A stretch of DNA of 64,000 nt, from positions 1-64,000 of the forward strand of contig CAWHWX010000018.1 of assembly GCA_963833125.1 (NCBI GenBank), given 5' to 3'. Below are positions 2,770 to 21,530 of the stretch, piece after piece (position 1 is the first letter of the stretch; each line of letters starts with the position of its first letter). Below the pieces are notes generated by a model, which searched no databases, was not told the origin of the DNA, and saw only the letters and a list, made by a program, of their open reading frames with translations. Source of the DNA: Candidatus Bathyarchaeota archaeon. Lineage in GTDB: Archaea; Thermoproteota; Bathyarchaeia; 40CM-2-53-6. The position numbers were made by a program, and so were the translations under genes.

Positions 2770-3307
2770 ATGCAACTGATTCGATACTTCGAACGCTTTC
2801 CGTTTGAAGTAAGACAACCGCCAAACCATGATTGGTGTATCCCTGCGAGTATTGAAGCAGTCGCAAAATATCACATGCCGAACTCAACAGTAACGCAGGG
2901 GCAAATACTACGCGAATTCGTGAGAAGGAAAGGGCTGGATCAGATAGGACTCAAACCAATCCAAGATGTATTGAAGCAATACTCCGAGTTTTCGTGGGCC
3001 GATATCCGATATTGTGAAGAGTATCAATTTCATGGGTTATTCAATGCGTTAGTTAGCTTTCTTGAAGAATGTGTAAACGAAAATAGACCCGCCATAATTT
3101 CGGTACCGATTCCGCCGAAAAACTGGCATATGCTGACTGTGCTTGGTTATGATCAGGGAATTTCTTAGAGTCTACGACCCAAACCCATTTGTTTGGAGTG
3201 CGTACTGTGATGCTGCAAAATTGAAAATTCAAGGTGCGCTACGTTCACGAAAATTAACATCAGATACGACGGATGCTCTTGTCATTTCTCCAAAGACACG
3301 CACCTAA
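2770..3307 (+). CDS. Peptidase C39-like papain-fold cysteine protease (frameshift near 3160)
   Basis: Q..WCIPAS (catalytic Cys) and HMLTVLGYD (His). After the frameshift it continues FLRVYDPNP (Asp) to TAA at 3305-3307. Confidence 0.65.
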
Positions 3308-3316
3308 CTTACTAAA

Positions 3317-4086
3317 TTAGGGTCAGAGTCAGAGGGATTTGAACGAGATAAGGTGCGGGTCCTTTGAAAAATTAACTGGCTGCAGCGGAGATCCATTACA
3401 AGAACACACAACAATATGTAATCGGGATCGCTAGAAATGCAGGTTCCGTTTTTTCAAAAATAGATAAGAATTCTTTTCCGGGAGATAATCAAAACCAGAA
3501 GAACGCTAATTATCACTAAGTATGCTGGGAAGGCGTACTGTGAAAAAGTCCATGCGGTGATTGCGAGGAAACTTGTAAGGCCGCCGAAAATTCCAACCGA
3601 GTACATCCATGCTGACTCTGATTCCGGATGCTGCCACCCTTTTAGGAGCGTCGGAACTGAGGCCAGAGCGTCGCTTAAGATTGCGAACAAGATGGCAACG
3701 CCTGCATCGCTCGTCACCACCCAAAAAACTAAGGCCAAGGCCGATAGCAGGCCGCAGGCATAATCCAGTTTGACCAACTTCCAATGAGTTCCCTTTACAA
3801 CAAAGGAAGCAGCGAAGATCAAGAGCGGAACGAAACCCGACATAAACACTGGCACAGCAGCCAAGCCGGCGCCATTGGAAACTTCTGCAGCAAAACCAAT
3901 CATCGCCGCAATCGCCCACAGCAGCCAGCTCACTCGATTCGGCTTCACACTCCCCTTCAACATCGACCTTACGTAAACGTAAGCAGCGACCAAGAATGCT
4001 CCAGCCGACACAAAAACCAGATACTGCAACATCTCAATCATCAGTGACTACTTGATGGCATTGTCGTGGATGTGCACCCCACGGTG
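3317..4086. repeat. Repeat B copy 1 (770 bp, membrane protein cassette); direct repeat of 16352-17121
   Basis: Same offset (13035) at both ends; roughly 95% identical by eye. Confidence 0.95.
3454..4041 (-). CDS. Hypothetical integral membrane protein (about 7 TM, possibly PQ-loop-like), copy 1
   Basis: Hydrophobic 195 aa with KPNRVSWLLW and PTLLKGWQHPESES motifs. Near-identical paralogue at 16489-17076. Confidence 0.8.
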   Translation of the reverse strand: MIEMLQYLVFVSAGAFLVAAYVYVRSMLKGSVKPNRVSWLLWAIAAMIGFAAEVSNGAGLAAVPVFMSGFVPLLIFAASFVVKGTHWKLVKLDYACGLLSALALVFWVVTSDAGVAILFAILSDALASVPTLLKGWQHPESESAWMYSVGIFGGLTSFLAITAWTFSQYAFPAYLVIISVLLVLIISRKRILIYF

Positions 4087-4128
4087 GTCAAAATCCAGAC
4101 GCACTATGTGACCCGAAGAGTTGTGATG

Positions 4129-4974
4129 TTATAGTTTTGGATAATTTAGAGGCGCCCCTTTCTCTCCTACATCAAGCGCCCCGATGTGCATGCCTCCCAA
4201 ACTAGCTATGAAGAGTCTAGTGCTGTTTGGTTCGAAGGCGACGTTGGTTGGTTGATTCAACACCTCTCCGGTCGTGTCTTCGATTATTAAGTCGATGTTT
4301 CTGTCTGGGTAGATAATGTAGAGTCGATTTGGGTAGTAGCATGAGACATAGAGATTTCCGCTGTTAGCAAATGCGAGGCCGTCGAGTTCATTGCCTTGCA
4401 TTTGAACAAATATCTCCGGTGGTCCTGTCGTGCCGTCCTTGTTTATGGGAACACGAATAATGTCTGCCGCCGCTGTTTCAATCATATAAACGGAATCATG
4501 CTTGGGTGACATTGCTAAGCCGTTTGAGAAATGCCAGTTTCCTCCGATTAGTGATTCTGCCGTGTGGTTTCTGTTAACTCTAATTAGACGGCCGCTGGGT
4601 CTCCAGGTATCGTATCCTGAGTCGGAAAAGTAGTAGTTACCTTGGGGATCGAATAGGCCGTAGTTCGGCCATATGGTCGGTCCGTCTGACGCACGGTCAC
4701 AGAAAATTGCGTACTGTCCATCCTGAGTGAATCTGTACACTTTGTGATCGAAAGCGTTGCATCCGTAGACGGAGTGGTTTCCATCTACGGCCACTCCGGC
4801 GTAACCGCCTATTGTGTGCGCAAGTAATTGCAACGAATAGTCCGGAGGAGTTAACACATATATTTGGCCAGCAATGCCGCCTGCGTAAAGTCGGCCGTCT
4901 GGACCGAAGTTTACGCATTCTGGATGATCTAGCCCTTTCTGAATCACTTGTACCTGGTGCAGGTTTTTCCGCAA
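4129..4974 (-). CDS. SMP-30/gluconolactonase/LRE family beta-propeller hydrolase
   Basis: HPEC..FGPDG, WPNY, FSNGLA, LDGLAF, PTNVAF motifs. Confidence 0.85.
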   Translation of the reverse strand: MRKNLHQVQVIQKGLDHPECVNFGPDGRLYAGGIAGQIYVLTPPDYSLQLLAHTIGGYAGVAVDGNHSVYGCNAFDHKVYRFTQDGQYAIFCDRASDGPTIWPNYGLFDPQGNYYFSDSGYDTWRPSGRLIRVNRNHTAESLIGGNWHFSNGLAMSPKHDSVYMIETAAADIIRVPINKDGTTGPPEIFVQMQGNELDGLAFANSGNLYVSCYYPNRLYIIYPDRNIDLIIEDTTGEVLNQPTNVAFEPNSTRLFIASLGGMHIGALDVGEKGAPLNYPKL

Positions 4975-4990
4975 ATGAGTCTAACCTCGA

Positions 4991-6611
4991 TCACGAAGAT
5001 TCTTGATGCATATTGACCGTAGCCTCGTCATGGTGTCTCAGAACTTTTCCAGCCCGTTCAGAAGTTGGGCGGTCCTTCTCCAAAGCCTTTCTTCCGTTCA
5101 CGAAGACATAACTCATTCCCTTTGCGAGCAGGTTAGAATGGGAGAAGGTTGCGAGATCTTGTACGGCTTCCGGATCGAATATGGCGAGGTCGGCTTTGTA
5201 GCCCACCTTAACCGCTCCCCTATCCATCAATCCGATTCTAGCGGCGGGCATTGAAGTCATTTTCTTTACTGCTTCCTCTAACGTTAGCATCCGTTTCTCT
5301 CTCACATATTTGGCTAGGATATGGGAGTTGGTACCGAAAACTCTTGGATGTGGCTTTCCTGTGGGGTTAACACTATCGGATGCAATTGATGAGAGCGGGT
5401 GACAAACAACTGTATCAACGTCTTCGTTCGACATCTCGAAGAGGATGATTAGGATTGGGTGCGTTGATCTGCCATACTTTTGAACGAGGTCCACCACGGC
5501 CTCGGCTGGATTGCAACCGTTCTCTTGGGATATTGTAGCTAAAGTTTTGCCCTCAAGAGCGTGATTGTCCTCGCAGTAGGAGAGTATGATGTTCTCGGGC
5601 CCAGTTTCAACGAGCGGCCGTTCCTCGTCTGAGGATTTCATTAGCATCTCTGAAACGATCTTCGCTCGAGTATCTGGGGTCTTCATCCGTTCTTCCGCGA
5701 ATTGTTTGCCCGTTGGAGAATACCCAACTTGGGATTAGCGTATGGAGTGCCGTGTTGCCTGCATTATATGGATAGACGTCGCAGGCAGCATCCACACCTT
5801 GGTTTCGAGCAACCTCGATCATGCGAAGAGTTTTGCGGACTGTTCCCCAGTTGTCTCGACCGGTTGACTTGTGGTGTGAGATCTGCACCGGGATTTTTGC
5901 TTCGCGACCTATGCTCAAGGCTTCCTGTACGGCGGCTTCGAGGTTTGAGCCTTCTCCTCGAATGTGCGAAACGTAGACTCCTCCATCCCTTGCAACAACT
6001 TTGCTTAGCTCAACAAGTTCGGTCGTTTCTGAGTAGATGCCCGGTACATAGATTAAGCCAGTTGATAATCCAAATGCGCCGTCCGTCATTGCTTCATGGA
6101 CCAGGGCTTTCATTTTGTCAAGTTCCATCTCCGTCGGTCGTCGCTTTTCTGGTCCGATGACGTTCAGACGGATGACACTATGCCCCACAAGAGTACCTAC
6201 GTTGATTCCAAGATTAACCGTGTCAAGATGGCTAAGATATTCGCCCATCGTGTGCCAATTCCATGGGACGCCGGCGATGTTGATCAAGGATTCTTGAACT
6301 AAGTTCTCCTTTCCTAACAGGATGGGTGCCGCGGAGAATCCACAATTGCCTACAATTAGTGTGGTTACGCCTTGGCAAAGTTTCTCCACACCCGTGGGAT
6401 CGAAAAGGAGCCAGATGTCTTCGTGGGTGTGAATATCGATGAAGCCTGGTGCGATAACCAACCCAGACGCGTCGATGATTACTGACGTGTTGCGTGATTC
6501 TTCTCCAACGTATGCAATGGTATCATTCTGGATTCCAACATTTGCCTTACATCGTCGTGCTCCCAAGCCGTCGACTATCTCGCCATTCTTGATGAAAAAG
6601 TCTAGCGACAT
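4991..6611 (-). CDS. N-acyl-D-amino-acid deacylase (D-aminoacylase) family amidohydrolase (frameshift near 5700)
   Basis: ORF 5607-6641 carries PGFIDIHTH, GNCG, SHIR and ISHHK. ORF 4991-5686 carries ASD, PHPRVFGT and KKMTSMPA. They are halves of one gene; ATG at 6611. Confidence 0.9.
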
Positions 6612-6748
6612 GTTCGACGAACTCTGGAAGACTTTCCGCATAATTAAGGGTGAATATGAAAATCTTAATCCGCGTCCGAACGTTTGACGTACTGTTCCAG
6701 TGGTTTAAGTGAAGTCTTTATTAGCGAAATGAGCCTTGGCCAAGGAGA

Positions 6749-7876
6749 TTGAACTTGAGAGTTCCAGATTTCGAGCTTGAGAGATGGAAATTCACTAGAC
6801 AATATTTCTGCAAATACGACCTTACCGAAACTGGAGTTGACCCACTAACCATACGAGATTTAGCCGGGCAAGAAATCTTTGACCTAAAGTTGGATTATGT
6901 AACCACAAACGGGGATGAGGGGCTTCGCAGCAAGATAGCTGGGTTATACAATGACGTGGATAAGGATCAGGTTTTGGAGACGACGGGTATCAGCGAAGCG
7001 AACTTCATCGCTGCGAACCTTGTGATTGATAGCGGAGACGAAATAGTCGTAGAAGTCCCGACATTCATGCAAACGCTGGGCGCCGCCGAAGCGAACGGCG
7101 CCAGAGTCCACTTGTTTCATCTTCGTGAGGAAGAGAACTATCTACCCAACTTGGAGAGACTCAATGAGATCGTAAACAAGAAGACGAAAGCGATCTTGCT
7201 ATCGCATCCTAACAACCCGACTGGTTCGGTTCTCGACGAGAAAAGTGTGAAAGCCATTTGTGAGATAGCGTCTGACGTGGGGGCGTGGATTCTTGTTGAC
7301 GAAGTTTACCGAGGCATCGAATTTGAGGGGAACTTCTCTCCATCCTTCGTCGACTACTACGACAAAGCCGTCGTTGGTGGCAGTACCTCAAAAGTATGGG
7401 GGTTGGCTGGGTTGAGGGTCGGATGGATGATCGGACCGAGGGAAATTGTTGACAAGGGTGCAGCATACAGAGAATACACCTCGCTCTCGGGGAACCCTAT
7501 CTCTGAACGGCTCGCCAACATAGCGCTCGCAGAACCGATGAAAAGCAAGTTAATTCAGCGCGGCAGGGGTCTGGCGAAAAGCGGATTTGAAACATTCAGT
7601 ACATGGATGGACACACACAAGAATGTTTTCAGCTGGGTGAAACCGAAAATGGGAGTCATTGCGCTTGTGAAACATTCGCTGTCCAAGTCATCCCTAGAAA
7701 TCACAGACGAGTTGTTTAAGGAGAAAGGGGTTGCCGTTGTTCCAGGCGAAGTCTTCAACCTCCAGAAACATTTTCGATTTTGCTACGGCTTACCCGTACC
7801 AAAAATGAAAGAAGCCTTAGCCCACACCGACGAGTATTTGGAGAAACAGACGACGGTAATGCAGATAGCCCATTGA
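6749..7876 (+). CDS. PLP-dependent aminotransferase class I/II
   Basis: PNNPTG, DEVYRG, STSKVWGLAGLRVGW (PLP Lys), FRFCY. Confidence 0.9.
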   Translation: MNLRVPDFELERWKFTRQYFCKYDLTETGVDPLTIRDLAGQEIFDLKLDYVTTNGDEGLRSKIAGLYNDVDKDQVLETTGISEANFIAANLVIDSGDEIVVEVPTFMQTLGAAEANGARVHLFHLREEENYLPNLERLNEIVNKKTKAILLSHPNNPTGSVLDEKSVKAICEIASDVGAWILVDEVYRGIEFEGNFSPSFVDYYDKAVVGGSTSKVWGLAGLRVGWMIGPREIVDKGAAYREYTSLSGNPISERLANIALAEPMKSKLIQRGRGLAKSGFETFSTWMDTHKNVFSWVKPKMGVIALVKHSLSKSSLEITDELFKEKGVAVVPGEVFNLQKHFRFCYGLPVPKMKEALAHTDEYLEKQTTVMQIAH

Positions 7877-7983
7877 ACTCTAAGTGAAACTCTCAACCTT
7901 CTTTATCGCCGAAGAACGAGAGCATGGGCGACCGGACGGTGCATGCCATAACGTCCAGTTGGACGGTGTCCGTTAGTTGACTT

Positions 7984-8985
7984 TCACTTCTTCGTTTTAC
8001 GCCTGAAATATGGAATGATTTTTCGCCCGAACATCTTCACCGTTGCGCTCGGGTTGTAACCCCAATCCCCAATGATTATGTGATCAAATCCCGTCTCTTG
8101 GAACTCTTCAATGCGGTCAATTAGAGTATCAGATGAATTAGTGAGACAGGTTCTTTCATGGATGAATTCATCGGTTAGGTTACGGGCCGACGCCTCAATC
8201 TTTCGAGGGTCCATCTCGTTCGTATTCTCAGGGATCATGGAACCTGCGTGAATACGGAATTTCTTCAATAGCTTCCCGACGTTTCCGTATCCGCAATCTA
8301 TGTATACGGAACATTCCGCTTTGGCGGAAGTTTTTCCCGACATCTCCTGCCCCTTCTTAAACTCGTGAAGGATCGAACTGGGGACCCGTGCGGCGGACGA
8401 TGCGGCAGTCATTAGGTGGTCTGCTTCTTTGCCGGCTAGTAGAGCCGATTTCGGACCGAACGCAGACCAGTAGATCGGAATTTGTCTCTTGGGCTTATCG
8501 TAACAATACATCCCTTTCACCGTGAAATACTTGCCTTCGAAATTGAAGTAGTCATCCGAAGACCAATACTTTCGCATAAGTCGGAGGGATTCAACGAGAG
8601 TTTCCGCACGTTCCTTCCAACTTGGCCATTTTCCTAGTATCGGTTCCTCGTTTATGGCCTCTCCAGTTCCAACGCCTAGTAGAACTCTCCCTGGATGAAT
8701 TTGTGACATGGTTGCGAAGGCTTGGGCTACGACGATTGGATGGTACTTGAACATTGGGACAGTGACATCAGACCCTACTGGAATCTTATTTGATCTCTCA
8801 AGCGCAGCCGCAATCCAGACCCACGCTTGTGGGACATGCGCATGGGTATGGAACCAAGGCAGGACATGGTCCCCAAACCAAGCAGCATCGAACCCCGCTT
8901 TCTCGACTTCAACAGTGATTCGTAGTGAATCATCCGCCTCAAACCAAGTACCAGCGGGGCCCACATCGTAGCTAATCTTGAGCAT
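7984..8985 (-). CDS. LLM-class (probably F420-dependent) oxidoreductase, G6PDH-F420-like
   Basis: GFDAAWFGDHVLPW, AQAFAT, GRVLLGVGTGEAINE. Confidence 0.85.
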   Translation of the reverse strand: MLKISYDVGPAGTWFEADDSLRITVEVEKAGFDAAWFGDHVLPWFHTHAHVPQAWVWIAAALERSNKIPVGSDVTVPMFKYHPIVVAQAFATMSQIHPGRVLLGVGTGEAINEEPILGKWPSWKERAETLVESLRLMRKYWSSDDYFNFEGKYFTVKGMYCYDKPKRQIPIYWSAFGPKSALLAGKEADHLMTAASSAARVPSSILHEFKKGQEMSGKTSAKAECSVYIDCGYGNVGKLLKKFRIHAGSMIPENTNEMDPRKIEASARNLTDEFIHERTCLTNSSDTLIDRIEEFQETGFDHIIIGDWGYNPSATVKMFGRKIIPYFRRKTKK

Positions 8986-9102
8986 GCCACAACGAGAGGC
9001 GCTTTACTCTAAAAGAATAGTTCCTCAAACATTAGCGAGGAGCGGCGTACTCCCCCGATTGGCAATACGAAGCCTCAAAAATCCCGATATCGTCGCAAGG
9101 CA

Positions 9103-9108
9103 TATAAA
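9103..9108 (+). promoter_or_regulatory. Putative archaeal TATA box of the APC permease
   Basis: TATAAA about 30 nt before the TTG at 9138, consistent with a leaderless transcript. Confidence 0.5.
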
Positions 9109-9137
9109 CGGACCAATCGAGTTATGGCCGAATCATC

Positions 9138-10733
9138 TTGGCCAAGCAACCAGTTTTCGTTAGAGAAGCCACTGGCCTAGTTAGAGAGGCAGGCCTCATT
9201 GACATTCTAATGTTCAACGCACAATCAGTGACAGGTGTAGCGATTGTAGCGGGAGGACTACTCTTGCTTCCACTCATGACATCGGGAATTGGCATTACCG
9301 GTTCAATTATTTTGGGTTTGATAACAGCTATCTTCGTGAATTTCACCTATTACATTCTGAGTGTGACAATTCCTCGAAGTGGCGGAGACTACATCTACAT
9401 TTCCCGACTTCTACACCCAGCTCTTGGGGTTCTTGCAGCCGGCCTAATGGGAATATTCGTACCAATCATACTTGCTGCAACTTTCGGAGCTTCTGTGTGG
9501 GTTACGGCTGGCCTTAGCCCTCTCCTCGCAGCGATAGGACAGGGAGGTTTGGCGAGTGTCGTCACCAGCTCTACCAATTTGACCATTGCCGGAATGATCT
9601 CTACGGTCTTCTTCGCTGTGCTTTTGATCTTTGGCGGCAATCGGGCATTCTTCCGATTGAACAACGTACTCTATCTGATCGCGATGGTTGGGTTGATTGT
9701 GGGAGGTGCGATATTCCTATCGATGGATCATGCCACCTTCGTAAAGCTGTTCGATACCTATGCGTCCACGTATGGGACAAGTTCAGCGGACATTATCCAA
9801 ACGGCCTCTTCAAATGGCCTCACGATGCCCGCGAGCGACTTCCCCTCGATTACTCTGGCATCAGCCCTGATGTTCGCATCCTTCTACTGGTGTACACAGT
9901 CATCCTATCTGGGCGGTGAAATCAAGCACATAAAGCGGACCCAGTTCTGGGGCATGATAGGCACAGGAATCATCTGGGGCGCTATCACACTGTTCGCAAT
10001 TATCCCTGCCTACTTTACCGTAGGTCCGAATCTTATCACCGCCGCAGATTATCTGAGCTACCTCCAACCACAACTTTGGAAGATTCCCGTCTCATCGTTT
10101 TTTGCGCTCTACACGAACATCGCGGCTCAGAATCCCGCGGTGGGAGTTTTGATTGCGCTCGCGTTTTTGTTCGGTTATTTGACCGCAACGGGATGGTCTT
10201 TCATGATATTCTCAAGAGTCGTTTTCGCCATGTCCTTCGATAGGTTCCTTCCGACGAAACTTGCGGACGTAAGTGACAAGTATCATACACCTGTTAAAGC
10301 GATCGTGCTTGTAGCAGTCCTCACTGCTGTCTGCTTGTTACTCTTGACGAATTCACAGACAGCCGTGGTCCTCTATACTTGGGGGGTCGCGATAAATGTC
10401 GTCGCTATGCTAACTTTCATAATGTCTTCCGTCGCTCTAACACTAATGCCGTTCCTTCACAAGAACACATACGAAGTCGCTTGCCCATTTAAGCAGAAAA
10501 TCGCCGGCTTCCCAGTGGTGTCATTAGTAGGACTGGTAAGTGCGTTGCTGCTTATGGTCTATGAATATCTGGAAATATCTAACCCGGTATTTTTCGGCAT
10601 TAGCCCTGCGGCCTTAGAAGCAATGGGGATAACCATCGTATTCTTCCTTGCACTGTATTTCGTCGTGACCACATACCGAAAATCACACGGCGTAGACCTA
10701 CGCTTGGCATACAGAGAGATACCTCCAGAATAG
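9138..10733 (+). CDS. APC family amino acid/amine permease
   Basis: FVREATGLVRE, PRSGGDYIYISR, FDRFLP; about 12 TM; C-terminal REIPPE. Confidence 0.9.
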   Translation: MAKQPVFVREATGLVREAGLIDILMFNAQSVTGVAIVAGGLLLLPLMTSGIGITGSIILGLITAIFVNFTYYILSVTIPRSGGDYIYISRLLHPALGVLAAGLMGIFVPIILAATFGASVWVTAGLSPLLAAIGQGGLASVVTSSTNLTIAGMISTVFFAVLLIFGGNRAFFRLNNVLYLIAMVGLIVGGAIFLSMDHATFVKLFDTYASTYGTSSADIIQTASSNGLTMPASDFPSITLASALMFASFYWCTQSSYLGGEIKHIKRTQFWGMIGTGIIWGAITLFAIIPAYFTVGPNLITAADYLSYLQPQLWKIPVSSFFALYTNIAAQNPAVGVLIALAFLFGYLTATGWSFMIFSRVVFAMSFDRFLPTKLADVSDKYHTPVKAIVLVAVLTAVCLLLLTNSQTAVVLYTWGVAINVVAMLTFIMSSVALTLMPFLHKNTYEVACPFKQKIAGFPVVSLVGLVSALLLMVYEYLEISNPVFFGISPAALEAMGITIVFFLALYFVVTTYRKSHGVDLRLAYREIPPE

Positions 10734-10797
10734 AATCTAGAACCTCATTAATTCCCCCGACCCTCTGTTCAACCAGAATAGATCGAAGGCAAGCCCA

Positions 10798-11922
10798 CTG
10801 CCAGAAAAGACGTACGGCGCCGCCGTTCATGGCGCTGGCGACGTCAGCACCCAGCACATCAAAGCTTACCTCAACAATCCACATACTCGCGTCGTAGCCA
10901 TCTCAAGCAAACGAGAAGAAAGCGCACGAAAACTCGCAGAGGCATATGGACTTCGGGACGTCAAGATCTACACTGATTATCAGAAGCTCCTAGATGACCC
11001 GAACGTCGACATAATTTCCATTTGCACTCCGCAACAACTCCATGCATCAGAAACCGTGAGAGCCGCCCAAGCCCGAAAACATCTCTTGATCGAGAAGCCG
11101 GTGGCGGTAAACCTCTCAGAATTGCATAAGATGCAAGACGCGGTAAAGAAGTCGGGAGTGAAAACGGTAGTTGGTTTCGTGTTGAGATGGAACGGCGTTA
11201 TTGAAAGCATCAAGAACCTTCTTGCCAAGAATTTCTTCGGCAACGTATACTACGTTGAAACTGACTACCAATCTTTCGCCTGGGAACCTGTGGAGGAAAG
11301 ATGGGAATGGGTCAGATCTAAAAGCACAGGAGTTAGCCCGTTTCTGTTGGCGGGCGTTCATGCAATAGATATGGCACGCTGGCTGTCCGATAAACGCCCC
11401 GAAGGGACCTCGAACATTGTTGAAGTAGTATCCTATTCAGGAGGGTACCGGAAAGGAAAGGTACTCGCACCTTTGGATTACGATGTGAAACGGTATACTG
11501 GACGTAGTGCGACCGGGATGACGGTTCCCCCGCTCGAATATGATGGGCTAGAGGTAATGCTGGTCAAGTTCGATAACGGTGCGTTAGGAAAAATATCAAC
11601 GAACTTTGATTCGGTAATGCCCTACAATTTTGTCTGGGAGGTTTACGGCGATAGGGGTACCTGCAAACGAAACATGGTTTGGTCAAAAGAGTTCCCTGGG
11701 CAAACAGACTGGGTTCCAATTAGCGGAAATATGCCTGATTCTGCCGCCGTGGGTACGCATCCATTTCAAGATGAAATAGACCATCTTGTTGATTGCATTA
11801 GAACCAACCGTGAGTCACATTGCAACCTTGAGAACGCCGTCAATACGCATGAAGCCGCCTTTGCCGCCATGACTTCTCGCGAACAAGGAAGTAAGCCCGT
11901 CAGGCTACCTCTAACCGCATGA
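10798..11922 (+). CDS. Gfo/Idh/MocA family NAD(P)-dependent oxidoreductase
   Basis: The frame of ORF 11056 stays open upstream and encodes YGAAVHGAG (Rossmann), LLDDPNVDIISICTP and LIEKP. No ATG/GTG/TTG precedes the Rossmann motif; CTG at 10798 is the proposed start. Confidence 0.85.
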   Translation: MPEKTYGAAVHGAGDVSTQHIKAYLNNPHTRVVAISSKREESARKLAEAYGLRDVKIYTDYQKLLDDPNVDIISICTPQQLHASETVRAAQARKHLLIEKPVAVNLSELHKMQDAVKKSGVKTVVGFVLRWNGVIESIKNLLAKNFFGNVYYVETDYQSFAWEPVEERWEWVRSKSTGVSPFLLAGVHAIDMARWLSDKRPEGTSNIVEVVSYSGGYRKGKVLAPLDYDVKRYTGRSATGMTVPPLEYDGLEVMLVKFDNGALGKISTNFDSVMPYNFVWEVYGDRGTCKRNMVWSKEFPGQTDWVPISGNMPDSAAVGTHPFQDEIDHLVDCIRTNRESHCNLENAVNTHEAAFAAMTSREQGSKPVRLPLTA

Positions 11923-12011
11923 GGCACTCGCTACGACGGACTGAGTTGGCGTCGGGGATTATTTGCCGAAGCTTTAAGTGAAAAGCATCGCTTGCTCCGT
12001 CCCGATCATAA

Positions 12012-13295
12012 TTGAGTAATGGACGATTCAAGGTAGCCGAGGTTAAGGCTAGGCAAATTCTCGATTGCAGAGGCGATCCCACCGTTCAGGTCGAGATTCG
12101 AACTGAGGAGGGCATAACTGGACGGGCTGACGTCCCGCAAGGCAGATCCACTGGTAAGCACGAAGCGTTTGTCGTAAGAGATAATGGCCGTCAATTCGAC
12201 GGCAGGGGAGTGGGCCGGGCTGTTAGAAATGTTACTCACATTATCGCACCTGCGCTGAAAGGCCTCGATGTTAGACACCAGAGGGAAATCGATGCTAAGC
12301 TCATCAAATTAGATGGTACCGAGAATAAGTCGAAGCTTGGAGCGAACGCCATAGTCGGCGTCTCACTTGCAATATCCCGAACCGCAGCAAACGCACTGGC
12401 GGTTCCACTGTATGCTTACGTTGGCGGCGTAGCGTCATGTGTCCTACCCGTCCCGTTGCTAAATTACATTAACGGCGGTAAACTCGCTGCAACTAATCTT
12501 GATTTTCAAGAACATATGATACTCCCAGTCGGAGCAAAGTCATTCTCAGAAGCCATGCGGATTGGTGTTGAAGTCTACCATGAGCTGGGCCGCATGCTTG
12601 CCAGGAAGTACACGAAGTTCGTGCTCAATACGGCTGACGAAGGCGGCTACACACCACCTATGACTGATCCCAGAGACGCCCTGGACGCAGAACTGAAAGC
12701 AATAGAAGAATTAGGGTACGCGAAGGATTTCGTTCTAGGCCTAGACTGCGCCGCAACACACCTCTACCATAAGAAGCAGAGGACGTATACTTTCATGGGT
12801 AAGCGGATCAGCCGCGAGAGTTTGATCGACTTCTATGAAGACCTAACACGCCGTTATCCCATCGTTTCGATTGAGGATCCACTAGAAGAAGAAGACTTTG
12901 AGGGTTTCAAGGAACTCACCCGCACGTTAGGTATCCAAATCGTAGGCGATGATCTGTTCGTAACTAACGTGAAGCGGCTTGGGAGGGGAATTAGATTGGG
13001 TGCAGCGAATGCGTTATTGTGGAAAGTGAATCAAGTAGGAACGCTATCCGAGGCACTTGACGCGGCAAATATGGCTTTCAAGAACGGATACGGAGTACAA
13101 GTTTCCGAGAGATCCGGCCAGACTGAAGACACGTGGCTCGCTGACCTCACAGTCGCACTGAACGCGGGCCAAATCAAAACCGGAGCCCCATGCAGAAGTG
13201 AGAGAGTCGCGCAGTACAACCGTCTCTTGAAGATTGAGGAGGAACTCGGGAAATCGGCCAAATACCCCGGAAGGCATTTCAGGAAACCAGTCTGA
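12012..13295 (+). CDS. eno: Enolase-family protein 1 (divergent active site)
   Basis: RQILDCRGDPTV, LGANAI, DEGG, SIEDP, GDDLFVTN, KVNQVGT, QIKTGAP. Has GGKLA and SERSG where canonical enolase has GGxHA and SHRSG. Confidence 0.9.
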   Translation: MSNGRFKVAEVKARQILDCRGDPTVQVEIRTEEGITGRADVPQGRSTGKHEAFVVRDNGRQFDGRGVGRAVRNVTHIIAPALKGLDVRHQREIDAKLIKLDGTENKSKLGANAIVGVSLAISRTAANALAVPLYAYVGGVASCVLPVPLLNYINGGKLAATNLDFQEHMILPVGAKSFSEAMRIGVEVYHELGRMLARKYTKFVLNTADEGGYTPPMTDPRDALDAELKAIEELGYAKDFVLGLDCAATHLYHKKQRTYTFMGKRISRESLIDFYEDLTRRYPIVSIEDPLEEEDFEGFKELTRTLGIQIVGDDLFVTNVKRLGRGIRLGAANALLWKVNQVGTLSEALDAANMAFKNGYGVQVSERSGQTEDTWLADLTVALNAGQIKTGAPCRSERVAQYNRLLKIEEELGKSAKYPGRHFRKPV

Positions 13296-13319
13296 ATAGC
13301 GAATGGTGAGCTGCAAGAT

Positions 13320-14586
13320 TTGATTTTAGAATCAGTGCATGCGAGAGATATTGGATGGCCGCGGATGGCCGACCGTCGAGGTTGAGATTCGTTCGCAAGG
13401 GAAAAGCTTCCGCGACCAAGTCCCAACTGGACTGTCACGTGGAAGCCATGAAGCCTTCGAGCTCAGAGATGGGGGTAGGAGGTACAGCGGGCGAGGCGTG
13501 AGTAAGGCGGTTTCGAATGTTAACGAGATTATCGGACCAAAAATCGTAGGCAAAGACTTCTCATCCCAGCAGGAGATTGACAAGCAACTTATCGAAATCG
13601 ACGGCACCCCTAACAAACGAAGGCTTGGTGCAAATGCGATTCTAGGCGTGTCGATGGCAGCGGCCAGAGCTGGGGCGGAGGTGCTTGGCGTTCCAGTGTT
13701 CAAGTATCTGGCTAAGGGGGAGGCAAACACATTGCCCACCCCATTCTTCGACGTCATCGGAGGAGGAAAGCTTGCAGGTATCCCAATGGAAATTCAAGAA
13801 TGCATCTTCGTGCCATCAGGTTTCAATTCATACACCCAAGCAATGCAGGCGAGCGTCGAGGTCTATTACGAACTAGCTAAAGTGTTAGAGAAGAAATTCG
13901 GAAAATCCGCATTAAATGTAGGTGACGATGGCGGCTACGCACCCCCGATCAAGGCCGCGGAAGAAGGTTTTTCTCTAATTCGAAAAGCTGTTGAGAAATT
14001 AGGATATTCGAAGTACATAGATTACGCCATGGACGCGGCGGCGACACACTTCTACAACCCACGCACCCGAACATACACTCTACGCGGCCGCAAGATCAAG
14101 TACGAGAAACTGCTTGAATATTACGAAATGTTGGTTAAAAGATTCGACCTAATTTCAATCGAAGATCCTCTCTGTCAAGACGACTGGGATGGATTTCAAG
14201 AATGCAGACAACGACTAAAGATCCAGATCGTTGGCGACGACCTCTTTGCAACTAACCTGGCTCGACTCGAAAAGGGTATCCGACATCAAGCAGCTAACGC
14301 CATGTTACTCAAACTAAACCAAGTTGGAACTGTAACCGAGGCCTTAGACGCGGGTCGCAGTGCTTTGGGAAATGGGTACGGCGTCATGGTTTCTGAACGT
14401 TCAGGTGAACCTGAGGACGATCTGATTGCGGACGTTGCAGTAGCTTTGAACTGCGGGCAGATCAAAACAGGAGCCCCTTCACGGGCTGAACACACGGCTA
14501 AGTATAATCGGCTCTTCAGAATAGAGGAGCGGCTAGGTGCTCAAGCCAGCTACGTCGGTGGTCGGGCACTCTCTAAGCTATACTAA
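13320..14586 (+). CDS. eno: Enolase-family protein 2 (divergent active site; probable frameshift near 13345)
   Basis: Full enolase fold motifs with GGKLA, GDDGG and SERSGEP. A TTG at 13320, after GGTGAG, encodes ILESVHAR in another frame and joins EILDGRG at a GA repeat. Confidence 0.88.
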
Positions 14587-14672
14587 CGTCTGCTGGTTGC
14601 CCTCAAACCCCTGAGAACTTTGGCGAGTAACTCGGTGAGTGACATGGAGAATTTGGAGCGGGGACTCGCTAG

Positions 14673-16023
14673 TTGATCATCAAGAATCGCGAGGAACTTC
14701 TAAGCGAAGGAAATATTCCTGGTCGAAGGATCGTTCTTGATATTCTTGAGCATGCGGTCCGTGAGGTAAGCTTCGAGAAACTCGTTAGGGGGTTCGTTCA
14801 GGTCGGAGATCTGCTACGAATCGGTTCCCAATTATACGATCTCAAGGCGGTAAGCGATATCTACGTTCTAGGCGCGGGCAAACAGGTCTCATACATGGCG
14901 GCCGCCTTGGAGAATATATTGGGAGAAAGAATCAGTGACGGCGTCGTGATAGAAAAAGAAGGATGGGGCTGTTCGACTGAAAGAATTCGAATCGTGAAAG
15001 GCGGCCATCCACTGCCTGATGAAAATGGCATAGAAGGGGCAAAAGAGATCGTTCGAATTGCCAAAGCGCTTAAGGAAGATAGCTTGGCGATTGTTTGCGT
15101 ATCAGGGGGGTGCACGGCGCTCGCCGAATTACCCCCTGCCGGCGTCACTTTACAAGAAGTTCGAACAGTATTCGACTTGCTGCTGAGTGCCGGCGCTCCG
15201 ATTGAGGATCAGAACACCGTCAGGACACATCTGTCCCAATTGGGAGGAGGCAAACTATCGACTCTCCTACAGCCAGCTCAGGTCGTGGGCCTCATAGCTG
15301 TTGATGAGGTCTCCGGCCTGCTTTGGGGGCCCACTGTTCCTGACACAGCAACATTCGGCGACGCAATCAAAGTGCTAAGAAAATACGATTTGTGGGAACG
15401 GATTCCAAAATCGGTTCGTACGTATTTCGAGGAAGCGCGACCAAGTGAGGAAACACCCAAAGCCGCTGATTTTGATAGATTGGTTGTGAGGGTAGACAAT
15501 CTCGTCTTGGCCGACAATAACATGCTCTGTGAGGCAGCGGAGGCGAAGGGGAGAGAATTGAATTTGAAACGCGAAAACTATTGCGACCAAACTTGAGGGC
15601 GAAGCGAGAACAGTCGGGACAGTGCTAGCATCCATCGCACTCGAGATTGAAAGAAGTGGAAGCCCACTCCAGACGCCGTGTGTTATGATTGCTGGAGGAG
15701 AGACAACAGTCACTCTTGCTGCGAATTCGGGAAAGGGTGGAAGAAATCAGGAACTAGCTCTCTCAGCGGCGCTGAAGATTGCAGATAGCAAGAGAATCGT
15801 AATGGCATCCTTGGGCACGGACGGATCTGATGGCCCAACAGATATCGCGGGAGCGATCGTGGACGGCAACACGTTCAGGAGAGCAGAGAATGCTGGTCTA
15901 GACCTCTTCGAGAATTTGAAGAGACATGACTCTGCGAATACTTGCATAAAGTCTGGGTCTGCAATCCGCACCAACGACACAGAAACGAACGTCATGGATT
16001 TGATGATAATTTACGTAGCCTAA
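14673..16023 (+). CDS. MOFRL/DUF4147 glycerate 2-kinase-like protein (frameshift near 15568)
   Basis: GAGK, GHPLPD, SGGCTAL, RTHLS, then GEAR, GGETTV, GGRNQE, GTDGSDG, TETNVMD across ORFs 14673-15596 and 15622-16023. Confidence 0.9.
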
Positions 16024-16079
16024 TTGGCGATAGCGTGAAACATCTACAACGAATCTGCCACACAAATCCTACTCTTTTT

Positions 16080-16280
16080 GCCCGCCTCATTTTCTTGGGA
16101 ACTTTGTTCGTCAACGCTCTGGCGAATCCGGCTTGGGCAGGTCCCTTCGGCATTCAAACGGCCGCCATGATAATTGCAGCTTTCGTTCTTGGTGTCGGCT
16201 CCTATCTTGGAATGAAGACTTATCAGAAACGAAAAGGACTGGACATTTCCCTAGTGTTCAAAGAGATTCCGCCGGAGTAG
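16080..16280 (+). pseudogene. Orphan C-terminal fragment of an APC permease
   Basis: Two TM helices then KRKGLDISLVFKEIPPE, matching the C-termini of the full permeases. No N-terminal part upstream. Confidence 0.75.
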
Positions 16281-17652: not shown

Positions 17653-18678
17653 TTAGGAATTTTTTGCGAACGCGAAGTCTTGTTCTGCTATGCGGTTGAC
17701 CCACTGTTCTTGAATGTCACCGAGAATTACGTGACGTCCCATGCTTAGAGCTTCTTTGGCCCATCGAGCCCGACCCGCGAACGGGTCAAGCACCACATCG
17801 CCCGGCTGACTCAATGCTTTCAGGAGTTGAATGAATAGGGCTGCTGGTTTTTCGGCTTCGTGTTCTGTAGCGCCAATATCACAAACCCTCCTTAGTTTCT
17901 TGGCTTCAATGAAATTCGGCATTCCCAAGTCCCAGAGTTGACCGTTTCGTTCTCCTGCTGTGAACAAGAGAATTTGCATGCATTGGTTGCGACCGCACTG
18001 GTAGCCCATGCCGATTATTCCCTTATCCCACGTGATTGTTCCCCAGAAAACAAACCCGATTGATTGCGCAAGTTCGATTAGTTTTGTTATGTGTGGATAC
18101 GTGGTTCTGTTGAATGCGGGAACCATGACGGCGCAGGCTGCGCCGCCTTTCGGGAATTCCTCTTTAGTTTTCTTCTCTGCGTTTATGGTGTTCCATGTTC
18201 GAGACTTGTTCAAAACTCTGAAGGCTTCTCTTAGCCATTGTTCTTCTATGTCGTGTTGTTCGTATGTGCGCTTTCCGTCCATGAATGCGTGTGGACGGGT
18301 TGTGCCTTTTCCTAGCCATTGTTGTGTGCCCATGTTAAAGGGCGGGTCGGTTATGATGGCGTCTATTGAATCTGGTTCGATTTTGCTCAGTACATTCCAA
18401 GCATCGCCTTCAACTATGAGAATTTGAGCAGGCCCAGACCGTGCGAAATACACACCTTTCGTTACTCGAATAATTTTTCCCGCGTCCATGGCTTCATACA
18501 GTCGCGCTCGAATTGTTTCATTGGCCACGTCAGAACGGAATTTCTGAACGAATGAATAGATCGTGTTTAATGGTTCGGGTTTAGCTTGACATGCTTCAAT
18601 GACTAATTTCTGAATGGTTGGTTCTGTCTTTTCTTCGCCTTTTTGACTTGTGGTTTGAAACGTAAACGTAGTTTGCAT
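17653..18678 (-). CDS. N6-adenine/N4-cytosine DNA methyltransferase (beta class) with N-terminal winged-helix-like domain
   Basis: GDA, IDAIITDPPF (motif IV), H..EKP, DVVLDPFAG (motif I, degenerate FAGRAR). N-terminal TIRARLYE...IIRVTKGVY looks like a wHTH. ATG at 18678; ORF extends to 18738. Confidence 0.85.
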   Translation of the reverse strand: MQTTFTFQTTSQKGEEKTEPTIQKLVIEACQAKPEPLNTIYSFVQKFRSDVANETIRARLYEAMDAGKIIRVTKGVYFARSGPAQILIVEGDAWNVLSKIEPDSIDAIITDPPFNMGTQQWLGKGTTRPHAFMDGKRTYEQHDIEEQWLREAFRVLNKSRTWNTINAEKKTKEEFPKGGAACAVMVPAFNRTTYPHITKLIELAQSIGFVFWGTITWDKGIIGMGYQCGRNQCMQILLFTAGERNGQLWDLGMPNFIEAKKLRRVCDIGATEHEAEKPAALFIQLLKALSQPGDVVLDPFAGRARWAKEALSMGRHVILGDIQEQWVNRIAEQDFAFAKNS

Positions 18679-18829
18679 AGAATTCACCCATTTTCGATCC
18701 TGTGAAGCTAAATAGGGATGAGAGGTCCGTGAAAGCAATCAGCCATTAGGTTAGCAGGACCAGAATTCCGAATAGCGGGTTTGCGAATCTCAACTCGGCT
18801 TCCTTTGAAACGTTAGATGTCAAACCAGC

Positions 18830-19600
18830 TCATAATATCCGCGTTTTGCCTTCGGCAGTGAACTTCAGTAAGCCCTGGTCTCGCAATGTCTGCATTTGTT
18901 GTCGTATCTTTTGTTCAACGAACTTATTCTTAGGATGAAGTCGTTGAAGTTCATCTCTATACGAATATACCTCCTGCAGAGTAAAAACTGATTTCCTTAG
19001 GTCTCTTACGCACCTAAGAACATCTGCTGTCCAGCCTCTTCCCTCTAATGTCTTGCGAGCCAACAGTTTGGCTGTTCTCAGGTATTTCTCATGAACTTTC
19101 TGTATGTTTTCGATTTGCTCGTCTCTAACAATTGCAACATGACCATCCTCTGGCACCATTCCAAGTGAAATATCGCATCCTTGCCAAGGTTTGCTCCTTG
19201 ATTTTGGCTTACTAGGTTCGCTTGGGAGGATAGATGACTCCGTGAAGAAGAACTGAGGAATCACCTCTAGGTCTACAACCACAAGGCGAGGTTTGTCATA
19301 GTGGAGTAAGGCTAGATTGGGATTCGTTCTAGCCTTGACCGACCGCATGAGAGTCTGATAATCGCCGTCTCTGACCTTGCCTGCGAATGGTTTCATGCTC
19401 GCCTTGAGGTTGTAGGTTTGAAAACATTGAAGACACTTGAAATCAAGAACCTTCGTATTGGCCTTCTGCCGTGACAGTCTAAGTTCGAGACAATTTGGGC
19501 AATACAGATTGTTCTCTGCCCAACCTTCACTCAAACATCGCGCTTGCTGTTGACTGCTAGAATACTTATCCAGGCAAAGCGGATCTAGTGAGAGTTCCAA
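18830..19600 (-). CDS. DpnI / Dam-replacing family modification-dependent endonuclease
   Basis: YSS..QQAR.LSE.W, YCPNC, DF.C..C, DG.Y.T, NPN, GW..DVL.C and the C-terminal winged helix HPKN...KIRQQMQ.LRD.G. Confidence 0.88.
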   Translation of the reverse strand: MELSLDPLCLDKYSSSQQQARCLSEGWAENNLYCPNCLELRLSRQKANTKVLDFKCLQCFQTYNLKASMKPFAGKVRDGDYQTLMRSVKARTNPNLALLHYDKPRLVVVDLEVIPQFFFTESSILPSEPSKPKSRSKPWQGCDISLGMVPEDGHVAIVRDEQIENIQKVHEKYLRTAKLLARKTLEGRGWTADVLRCVRDLRKSVFTLQEVYSYRDELQRLHPKNKFVEQKIRQQMQTLRDQGLLKFTAEGKTRIL

Positions 19601-19880: not shown

Positions 19881-21098
19881 TTGAAGAAAGAGAACCTCAT
19901 GCATCTGAGCACAGAAGAAGAGGCAGCGCTCGGCGGTGGGTACGGCGAGGGTTCTCAGGTATGCATGGAACTACTCGTGGCAATTGGGGATGCGTTTGAT
20001 GCGGAGCGGATGATTCCGGTTACTCGTGCTCATGCGGCTTCTAGCGGGCAAGAGGGCGACTTGTTTTTTGTTGAGAAGTTAGCTAAGGGAGGTGCACGTT
20101 GTAAGATTCCGACCACGACGAACCCAGTCGCCAACTTCGATTACTTTCAGAAAATTATCAATATGGCCGACGAACCTGAGGAGGCTTCAGTCGCTTGGAA
20201 GGTTAAGCAGTACTACAGGGAAATTGGCGCCGTAATGAGTCAGTCATGCATCCCATACTTAGCCGAGAACATTCCGAAGTATGGGGAGCACGTAGCCTTT
20301 TCAGAATCCAGCGCAACGCCCTACGTTAACTCTGTTATTGGAGGATTAACGAACAGAGAGTCAATACAAACCGCCTTGGCTGCTGGAGTCATAGGCAAGA
20401 CGCCTGAGTATGGGCTGCATTTGAAAGAGAACCGCAAAGGAACGGTGCTCGTTAATGTCGAAGCCAAATTGACGAACGGATATGATTATGGGATTCTCGG
20501 CCAATACGTTGGGAAGAAGGTTGGGAACGGCGTTCCGGTGTTTATCGGCATAGGGAAGAACCCCACAATTGACCAGTTCATCAACCTGTGCGCAATGATG
20601 AACGTAACCGGCGCGATATCCATGTTTTTCATTCCGGGGTTCACGGTTGACGCCAAGACGCCTGAAGATGCCTTTGGCGGCGACGTTCCCAATGATAAGA
20701 TAACTGTTACCCAAAATGACTTGAAGTTGACTGAAGCTGAACTGCAGACAACGGATGGGAACGTGGAACTTGTCATGCTCGGTTGTCCCCATTACAACCT
20801 GGACCAGATAGGAGACGTTGCGAGGCTTCTGGACGGAAAGAAGTTGAGAACCGGGGTTTCTTTCTGGATTAATACTTCCGCAACAACGAAATTAATGGCG
20901 GAGAGGGCTGGTTATCTCCCAATGATACAGAATTCCGGCGCCCGACTCATAACAGACACCTGCATCGACATATTCGTCTTCAACCATTTACGAGGAAAAA
21001 CTGGGATGACCGACTCGCCGAAGTGCGCCTACTACAAAAGGTTCGGTAACGTGAGAGTCGGCAACGTAACCGAATGTGTCGCAGCAGCTGTTCAATAA
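19881..21098 (+). CDS. Aconitase X catalytic subunit (DUF521)
   Basis: PTTTNP, SCIPY, SESSA..Y.NSV.G..TNRES, GCPH, DTC, TDSPKCAYY. ATG at 19899 is an alternative start. Confidence 0.88.
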   Translation: MKKENLMHLSTEEEAALGGGYGEGSQVCMELLVAIGDAFDAERMIPVTRAHAASSGQEGDLFFVEKLAKGGARCKIPTTTNPVANFDYFQKIINMADEPEEASVAWKVKQYYREIGAVMSQSCIPYLAENIPKYGEHVAFSESSATPYVNSVIGGLTNRESIQTALAAGVIGKTPEYGLHLKENRKGTVLVNVEAKLTNGYDYGILGQYVGKKVGNGVPVFIGIGKNPTIDQFINLCAMMNVTGAISMFFIPGFTVDAKTPEDAFGGDVPNDKITVTQNDLKLTEAELQTTDGNVELVMLGCPHYNLDQIGDVARLLDGKKLRTGVSFWINTSATTKLMAERAGYLPMIQNSGARLITDTCIDIFVFNHLRGKTGMTDSPKCAYYKRFGNVRVGNVTECVAAAVQ

Positions 21099-21110: not shown

Positions 21111-21530
21111 ACGCCGGACCTTACGCTACGCTGCCACAAGATCGTGAAAGGTTACGGGGAAGGTGAAGCCCTCGTTTCCAAAGATCCAATCTGCTTCTAC
21201 CTAGCCGAGCCAAAGACAGGCGTTGTGCGAGAGCGGGGCCATCAGTTAGAGGGCAAGAGTGTTTCCGGAAAGGTACTGGTATTTCCTTCGGGAAAGGCGA
21301 GTTCCGCGGTTCAGATGGATGGACTTCGCAAACTGAATTTGAATAATGTTATGCCTACAGCACTGATCGTCACAGACGTGGAGCCGGTCCTAGTTTCGGC
21401 TGCCGCGTTACTGAAGATACCGATGGTTGATCGACTGGAGAAGGATCCATTCGATGCCATTCAGACTGGCGACATGGTCAAAGTTGATGCGGAACACTCC
21501 ACAGTCACCATAGTGAAGTCCGCGTCCTAA
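21111..21530 (+). CDS. Aconitase X swivel (small) subunit (DUF126)
   Basis: GEGEALVS..PI, H.LEGKSVSGKVLVFPSGKASS, IPMVD, TGD.V.VDA. The frame is open from 21105, and ACG at 21111 follows a GGTGA SD-like motif. Confidence 0.85.
   Translation, partial: TPDLTLRCHKIVKGYGEGEALVSKDPICFYLAEPKTGVVRERGHQLEGKSVSGKVLVFPSGKASSAVQMDGLRKLNLNNVMPTALIVTDVEPVLVSAAALLKIPMVDRLEKDPFDAIQTGDMVKVDAEHSTVTIVKSAS

Follow-up and report, generated by a model that had tools for sequence, protein, structure and literature searches.

The window analysed here is a 64,000-nucleotide stretch of a Candidatus Bathyarchaeota archaeon genome (assembly GCA_963833125.1, contig CAWHWX010000018.1, positions 1 to 64,000 of the forward strand). 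It carries two adjacent enolase paralogues followed by a kinase of the MOFRL (class II glycerate-kinase) family, and these three genes lie in a cluster with a permease and several other enzymes. A sequence-only reading had proposed that the permease, a dehydrogenase, the enolase pair and the kinase, at 9138-16023, form a new catabolic module. The order and coordinates that it gave for these genes agree with the open reading frames (ORFs) and with the Pfam and NCBIfam profile matches that back the gene calls. The cluster and its flanking genes are as follows:

4991-6641, minus strand: amidohydrolase (Amidohydro_3, D-aminoacylase-like), with Pfam matches on both halves
6749-7876, plus strand: pyridoxal phosphate (PLP) enzyme, aminotransferase class I/II (Pfam Aminotran_1_2)
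7984-8985, minus strand: luciferase-like oxidoreductase of the F420-dependent glucose-6-phosphate dehydrogenase family (Pfam Bac_luciferase)
9138-10733, plus strand: APC-family amino acid permease (Pfam AA_permease)
about 10798-11922, plus strand: Gfo/Idh/MocA oxidoreductase (PF01408, PF02894 and PF22725 if read from 10795)
12012-13295, plus strand: enolase paralogue 1 (copy 1; Glu-type, subtype I; TIGR01060, 546 bits)
13339-14586, plus strand: enolase paralogue 2 (copy 2; Glu-type, own subclade; TIGR01060, 481 bits)
14673-16023, plus strand: MOFRL kinase (DUF4147 and MOFRL domains; ORFs 14673-15596 and 15622-16023)
16119-16280, plus strand: 3' remnant of an APC permease directly after the kinase (match to the permease C-terminus)

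Glu-type refers here to enolases with Glu in place of the His of the SHRSG motif, and the loci, genomes and contigs compared are given as L, G and C numbers. Both window copies have Enolase_N and Enolase_C at full length, and their scores exceed the TIGR01060 cut-off of 300 bits. They were aligned with the canonical enolase of their own genome (L001:1450-2766), to which they are 50-53% identical, and with the M. jannaschii structure 2pa6. Like the canonical enzyme (EC 4.2.1.11), both copies keep the metal ligands (the Asp of DAA, in LDCAA and MDAAA, with IEDPL and VGDD), the general-base Lys of KxNQ (WKVNQ and LKLNQ), the carboxylate-binding Lys (GQIKTG in both), the Gln-Glu pair, the Arg-Ser of SxRSG and the lid Ser (GRSTG in copy 1, GLSRG in copy 2). 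In contrast, the loop His is Leu in both copies, GGKLA standing for GGKHA (Leu158 of copy 1, codon 12483-12485; Leu145 of copy 2, codon 13771-13773), and the next His is Glu in both, SERSG standing for SHRSG (Glu366, codon 13107-13109; Glu353, codon 14395-14397). The general-acid Glu is kept in copy 1 (ADEGGY) and is Asp in copy 2 (GDDGGY), while Ala38 is Arg in copy 1 and Leu in copy 2. The alignment also confirmed the further copy-2 changes of the sequence-only reading, namely GDDGG for GDEGG, GLSRG (within TGLSRG) for GASTG and RAEH for RGER, in addition to QEC and SERSGE. Copy 1 has changes of its own which that reading had not listed, including GRSTG (Ala to Arg), QEH for QEF, ADEGGY, ATHL and SERSGQ. 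In yeast numbering, we take the loop His to be His159, the SHRSG His to be His373 and the GDEGG Glu to be Glu211. By the same assumed correspondence with yeast enolase, the altered positions (His159, His373, Ala38, 169 and, as Asp in copy 2, Glu211) would lie over the C3 side of the substrate and the lid loops.

These residue changes are more than chance or error, because they recur in independent assemblies. SERSG was found in all of the 120 best relatives of copy 1 (68-100% identity), and among 18 close relatives of copy 2 (66-88% identity) none departs from Leu, Asp and Glu at the three sites or from the His of R.EH. Judged by this conservation, the substitutions are family traits and not decay. 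For the enolase tree, 290 sequences of at least 380 residues were reduced to 91 rows by a 78% identity filter. All 56 Glu rows fell on one side of a single branch, with support of 96 in FastTree and 94 in IQ-TREE (quick mode), so that the claim of motifs unlike those of the lineage's ordinary enolases holds in the form of a separate, conserved clade. The clade differs from 31 ordinary rows in the change of His to Glu, in Arg or Leu for Ala38, and in Cys or Gly for Ser in DSRG; the lid Arg (Arg38) and Glu373 occur together in 44 of its 56 rows. The loop His is present in 31 of the 31 rows that keep the SHRSG His, and in L029, in which the SHRSG region is out of frame. Some clade members also retain it, and to account for His and Leu at this site the tree requires four changes.

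Copy 1 and copy 2 belong to different deep subclades, and on this placement they are old paralogues, not the product of a recent tandem duplication. Several segments vary by subtype within the clade (N, E, C or G before GG; QEH, QEF or QEC; ADEGG, GVEGG, GDEGS or GDDGG; SERSG or SERSA; IKTG or IKNG) and are near-invariant among ordinary enolases. Because of this, the subtype motifs may be the mark of diversified specificity. Several Glu-type subtypes can occur together in one genome or locus. The clade is mostly archaeal, its sampled members being from Bathyarchaeia, other archaea and some bacteria (Desulfobacteraceae, Chloroflexota), and the named relatives in the searches were all labelled 'phosphopyruvate hydratase' or 'enolase'.

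Two further kinds of enolase-like gene were seen. In another genome of the same genus, L101 (G303:C17) carries at 8999-10321 a third enolase-like gene of just 327 bits. Most of its active-site motifs cannot be recognised, and its neighbours are a kinase in fragments and a mandelate-racemase-type gene that is split. The bacterial loci L024, L026, L027 and L042 (Petroclostridium, Pelethousia, Desulfovibrionaceae) form a separate and more divergent enolase-like clade with GNY[CS]GY for GDEGG (Asn-Tyr at the Asp-Glu), SGRAGG for SHRSG and Tyr at the loop His. A MOFRL kinase lies directly 5' of each of these copies, with transporters of GntP, DcuC or Opp type and a mandelate-racemase-type enzyme beside them.

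The source genome (3.07 Mb in 39 contigs, 87.8% complete, 7% contamination) gave three matches to the enolase family model, one on contig C4 (582 bits) and the two window copies. The C4 enolase is canonical, with GGKHA, GDEGG and SHRSG, and the window pair is distinct from this housekeeping enzyme. C4 and C14, the contig of a second MOFRL kinase (C14:5289-6753, split by a frameshift), have the same G+C content as the window contig, and the tetranucleotide correlation for C4 is r = 0.96. An enolase match was obtained in 383 of 400 other genomes drawn from across the class. Leaving the source genome aside, the 29 best places comprised 3 canonical enolases and 26 copy-1-like Glu-type enolases from 26 genomes, of which 24 had at least one further enolase match.

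The kinase is divergent too. Like the class II glycerate 2-kinases of T. tenax, T. maritima (TM1585, 2b8n) and P. horikoshii (PH0495, 1x3l), it has the DUF4147 and MOFRL domains, and its DGSDGPTDIAG segment fits the family motif D-x(0,2)-G-x(0,1)-D-[GP]-x4-[APS]-[ACDGST] as set out in PMC2063504, which also treats the T. tenax enzyme. However, the conserved segments are altered as the sequence-only reading had described, with SGGCTAL, VRTHLSQLGGGKL and AVDEVSGLLWGPT in place of the SGGGSAL, VRKH..KGGKL and SDV..IASGP of the solved structures 1x3l and 2b8n, that is, with RTH, GGG and a shortened VDEVSG-LLWGPT. RTH stands where 19 of 24 other aligned kinases have RKH (4 RRH, 4 RNH). The two halves of the gene score 90.6 and 80.5 bits against the glycerate 2-kinase equivalog cut-offs of 550 (NF041176) and 670 (NF040791); the split depresses these scores, yet the summed halves are still far below either cut-off. 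Similar motifs, a shortened [IV]DE[IV]xG-xPWGPT and [TS]GG[ACS][ST], were found in 16 of 20 aligned archaeal kinases that adjoin a Glu-type enolase. In the kinase tree, the window kinase falls among the kinases that adjoin Glu-type enolases, and the kinases with these motifs, taken as one group, have weak support (13). The C14 kinase pairs with the kinase of L012 with support of 100. Since the L012 kinase lies beside a canonical enolase, the genome holds a canonical-type kinase and enolase together with a variant kinase and two variant enolases. At L012:6524-9281, in a Thermoproteales metagenome-assembled genome, the canonical enolase (GGKHA, SHRSG) directly follows a MOFRL kinase with canonical motifs, an arrangement that may be ancestral to the variant modules.

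The kinase travels with Glu-type enolases well beyond the window. A MOFRL kinase is adjacent to the enolase in 20 of the 26 Glu-type loci of the sampled relatives. In the loci of G295 and G242, no MOFRL kinase was found in roughly 6 to 12.5 kb of sequence to each side, and in the remaining four the contig stops at the gene or is too short. Around ordinary enolases, in a contig sample that partly overlaps the 26 Glu-type genomes, a MOFRL match occurs in the flanks of 1 of 26 loci (L012). For the copy-2 type, the kinase lies 3' of the enolase in all 12 loci with more than 200 nt downstream. Two arrangements recur among the metagenome loci. In L104 and L106, a copy-1-type enolase is followed by a copy-2-type enolase and the kinase; L114 has the tandem pair as well, with the window's PLP and luciferase-like genes in matching places, and its contig ends inside copy 2. 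In L107, L108, L109, L118 and L119, a copy-2-type enolase is followed by the kinase and then the PLP gene. The L109 cluster continues with the permease (77% identical to that of the window), the Gfo/Idh/MocA gene (72%), the amidohydrolase (56-59%) and an SMP-30-type lactonase. L110 and L113 combine the copy-2 type with a subtype III enolase, and no second Glu-type enolase was found in the available flanks of L107, L108, L109, L111 and L112. The two arrangements seem to have been merged and rearranged in the window. One related oddity is an in-frame chimera at L117:6227-7108, with the N-terminal half of a copy-1-type enolase and the C-terminal end of a copy-2-type enolase, followed by a kinase; metal ligands and catalytic Lys are both missing from it, and it arose either by deletion between the tandem genes or through collapse in the assembly.

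The conserved unit is therefore larger than 9138-16023, because the copy-2 type recurs with the kinase, PLP gene, permease, Gfo/Idh/MocA gene and amidohydrolase, and the PLP gene (6749-7876) and the amidohydrolase (4991-6641) belong to it. The amidohydrolase consists of two overlapping ORFs (4991-5686 and 5607-6641) and is thus apparently frameshifted; its orthologue L109:12307-13902 is intact, lies in a cluster with a copy-2-type enolase, and has PRK09061 as its top NCBIfam model, below cut-off. Orthologues of the PLP enzyme (77-83% identity) occur in the copy-2-type enolase and kinase clusters L107, L108, L109, L114, L118 and L119, and that of L109 has PRK07324, GntC and VioD as top NCBIfam models, all below cut-off. 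The luciferase-like oxidoreductase scores 190.7 bits for TIGR03557 against a cut-off of 210.4, and a 74% identical orthologue occupies the equivalent position in L114. In ORF 15942-16280 behind the kinase, the terminal 53 residues align with the C-terminal end of the permease at 9138-10733 (ending in KEIPPE; E 1e-8), which suggests a past rearrangement. Since the clade is linked to the MOFRL kinase, and the copy-2 type also to the Gfo/Idh/MocA gene and the permease, a specialised catabolic module is a fair reading, with wider limits than had been drawn for it.

Other neighbours of the clade are varied, and lean towards the metabolism of 2-oxo acids, 2-hydroxy acids and amino acids. They include D-2-hydroxyacid dehydrogenases (L082, L090, L099), an Ldh_2 gene (L110), LarA-type nickel racemases for 2-hydroxy acids (L083, L087, L092, L094), class III aminotransferases (L005, L083, L086, L092), aldehyde dehydrogenases (L009, L086, L090, L092), M20 peptidases, a thiamine pyrophosphate (TPP) enzyme and GlcD/GlcF-like genes. 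In L092 (G329:C2, about 3299-11036, minus strand), from the same genus, an AsnC-type regulator precedes a compact operon in which a subtype IV enolase is joined by a LarA-like 2-hydroxyacid racemase, a MOFRL kinase, a class III aminotransferase and a methylmalonate-semialdehyde-dehydrogenase-type gene of the CoA-acylating kind (544 bits; cut-off 448). A pyrimidine or purine catabolic context was considered for L005, L006 and L095 and set aside, as the OTCase-like, amidohydrolase and DHO-dehydrogenase genes of L006 could belong to pyrimidine biosynthesis.

The nearest known system is the route from glycerate through 2-phosphoglycerate to phosphoenolpyruvate (PEP), which according to PMC2063504 ends the non-phosphorylative Entner-Doudoroff branch, the serine cycle and the glycerate pathway. 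The window has the same two enzyme families in the same order, and L012 has such a kinase-enolase pair with a canonical enolase. In contrast to that route, the window enzymes are divergent paralogues that exist beside canonical-type copies and are embedded with a PLP enzyme, an amidohydrolase and a permease. Within the enolase family proper, an enolase homologue of phosphinothricin biosynthesis reportedly forms carboxyphosphonoenolpyruvate, and is said to dehydrate a 2-substituted glycerate other than 2-phosphoglycerate. That enzyme is described as biosynthetic and actinobacterial. A single function is usually ascribed to the enolase family proper, in distinction from the wider superfamily, and its active-site histidines are usually taken as fixed. 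A search of full-text literature, outside which most subscription journals lie, found no paper on enolases without these histidines or on enolase/MOFRL modules. The paralogues treated in PMC6946804 are those of the mandelate-racemase type in the superfamily, not members of this clade. Our results point to a conserved clade without those histidines that occurs alongside the normal enzyme and is accompanied by a kinase subfamily of its own.

We propose, with moderate confidence, that the locus is a catabolic cluster built around a module of kinase and enolase chemistry for a glycerate-like 2-hydroxy acid. In such a pathway, the permease would import an amino-acid-like compound, which the amidohydrolase, the PLP enzyme and the Gfo/Idh/MocA or F420-type oxidoreductases might turn into the 2-hydroxy acid. 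The MOFRL-family kinase would then phosphorylate its 2-hydroxyl. The Glu-type enzymes would hold the carboxylate and phosphate with two Mg ions, the conserved Lys would take the C2 proton and the C3 substituent would be lost, giving PEP or a 3-substituted analogue. Because the residues that bind carboxylate, phosphate and metal are kept and those of the C3 side and the lid are changed, we infer a departure from D-2-phosphoglycerate in the substrate, its stereochemistry or its leaving group. A more specific version, which we consider unlikely, is that the Glu-type enolases and their kinases act as PEP-forming lyases for 3-substituted lactates or longer 2,3-dihydroxy acids. The kinase would form the 2-phosphate ester, and the enolase-type enzyme would release either a non-hydroxyl leaving group or hydroxyl from a different stereoisomer, the subtypes (I-IV and the copy-2 type) differing in the leaving group. 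Candidate substrates of such lyases are L-glycerate, 3-sulfolactate, isoserine, tartrate and deoxy-tetronates. Four single routes were dropped for want of direct evidence: phosphosulfolactate to PEP and sulfite; 2,3-bisphosphoglycerate to PEP and phosphate, in which ATP would also be wasted; threonine-derived 2,3-dihydroxybutanoate, for which a one-step PLP dehydratase exists; and an amino-sugar-acid route from the Gfo, SGL lactonase and deacylase genes of L109.

Several observations weigh against the proposed reading. Both copies score above the NCBI enolase equivalog cut-off, and all metal ligands, both Lys, the Arg-Ser of SxRSG and the Gln-Glu of QE are kept. A canonical enolase adjoins a MOFRL kinase in L012, so plain 2-phosphoglycerate is a possible substrate. 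Some neighbours, such as a glyoxylate-reductase-like 2-Hacid_dh gene, the TPP enzyme and the GlcD/GlcF-like genes, would fit ordinary glycerate, glyoxylate and serine metabolism, and because the neighbours other than the kinase are heterogeneous, no substrate can be named. In G242 (93% complete) and G374 (87% complete), the Glu-type enolase is the only one found, the family model included, which incompleteness could explain. In this assembly, moreover, the kinase is frameshifted and carries RTH, and the dehydrogenase lacks a normal start.

The last of these points raises the question of decay. The sequence-only reading needs qualification on two genes: the kinase is split by a one-base frameshift, located at an A run (15567-15569) with one surplus A relative to the intact, 73% identical orthologue in L110 (994-2343), and the Gfo/Idh/MocA gene is without any ATG, GTG or TTG from the permease stop to the Rossmann motif. 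Read from 10795, the latter has both the N-terminal Rossmann and the C-terminal domain. CTG at 10798 is the sole start candidate, the ORF caller begins at GTG 11056 within the domain, and the orthologue L109:11145-12266 has ATG five codons ahead of the common YGAAVHGAGD. Both defects are probably assembly indel errors, because frameshifts recur elsewhere in this assembly (in the amidohydrolase and in the C14 kinase) and in G303 of the same genus (about 20 contigs), in which the kinases of L096 and L101 are each in three pieces. One public DNA run and no RNA run was listed as matching the window (8% of sampled words); over 10700-16100 its contigs cover 12410-12654, 14254-14412 and 15851-16031, with the kinase frameshift and the dehydrogenase start outside these pieces. 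That the cluster consists of pseudogenes, or its features of assembly artefacts, would account for the broken kinase and amidohydrolase, the missing start and the unusual RTH, but is scarcely credible given that both enolase ORFs are full length and share their special residues with independent assemblies, that an unrelated kinase copy and a few-contig genome of the genus show frameshifts as well, and that a single extra A in a short A run suffices for the kinase. Also proposed earlier was a heterodimer in which copy 2, with Asp for Glu211, is a weakened or regulatory subunit. The tandem order of copy-1 and copy-2 types in L104, L106 and L114, the fused remnant in L117, the subtype III partners in L110 and L113, and a second Glu-type enolase nearby in 7 of 12 loci, the window counted, speak for such a pairing. 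The idea is weakened, however, because the copy-2 type stands alone in the available flanks of the other 5 of 12 loci and conserves its catalytic set, for in 18 of 18 relatives neither a metal ligand nor either Lys nor the Asp is lost, as for an active enzyme; the copies are moreover deep paralogues, and we regard a weakened subunit as very unlikely. The suggestion that Glu for His373 suits an ammonia-lyase acting on 2-phospho-isoserine is highly improbable in our view. An extra acidic residue near C3 might suit a cationic group, and genes for amino acid metabolism, including the class III aminotransferases noted above and the PLP enzyme of the window, surround many members. But such aminotransferases would strip the amino group ahead of the kinase step, the lid Arg of most clade members fits a cationic substrate poorly, and nothing points specifically to a 3-amino compound.

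Retention of ordinary enolase function needs more careful weighing. The Glu-type enzymes may still be 2-phosphoglycerate enolases, acting as catabolic isozymes that work with a glycerate 2-kinase to convert glycerate from serine, glyoxylate or sugar acids to PEP, which we consider the main alternative, a serious one though less likely than our proposal. The changes of His would then be compensated by Arg at 38 and His at 169, and the frequent company of Arg38 and Glu373 could mark a compensating pair. The TIGR01060 scores of both copies, the full retention of metal, Lys, Arg and Ser residues, the glyoxylate/hydroxypyruvate-type neighbours and the adjacency of kinase and canonical enolase in L012 all agree with this explanation. 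Characterised MOFRL kinases produce 2-phosphoglycerate, according to PMC2063504. For a C3 acid PEP, rather than pyruvate, would be the most useful product. On the other hand, nearly all genomes with a copy-1-like Glu-type enolase (24 of 26) keep another enolase, and the source genome would then hold three enolases and two kinases for one reversible step. The active-site motifs also vary by subtype, unlike those of ordinary enolases, the partner kinases mostly have altered motifs of their own, and the window kinase stands apart from the canonical-type pair in the tree.

The two outcomes would have different consequences. If the substrate differs from 2-phosphoglycerate, glycolytic enolases are over-counted in metabolic reconstructions of these sediment and soil archaea, and a catabolic route is missed. 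If it is 2-phosphoglycerate, the roles now accepted for His159 and His373 have to be reconsidered. Were the Glu-type enzymes PEP-forming lyases, they would represent the first functional radiation inside the enolase family proper, and an ATP-neutral route from beta-substituted amino and hydroxy acids to PEP in anaerobic archaea.

Further along the window, an N6/N4 DNA methylase (17653-18738) adjoins a DpnI-family methyl-directed restriction endonuclease (18830-19600), both on the minus strand, an odd pairing that sits between the enolase cluster and genes for aconitase X (AcnX). The large (19881-21098) and swivel (21144-21530) subunits of the latter score below the cut-off of the cis-3-hydroxy-L-proline dehydratase model that they match. 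A second APC permease (21576-23201, minus strand), which also has the KEIPPE tail, comes after them.

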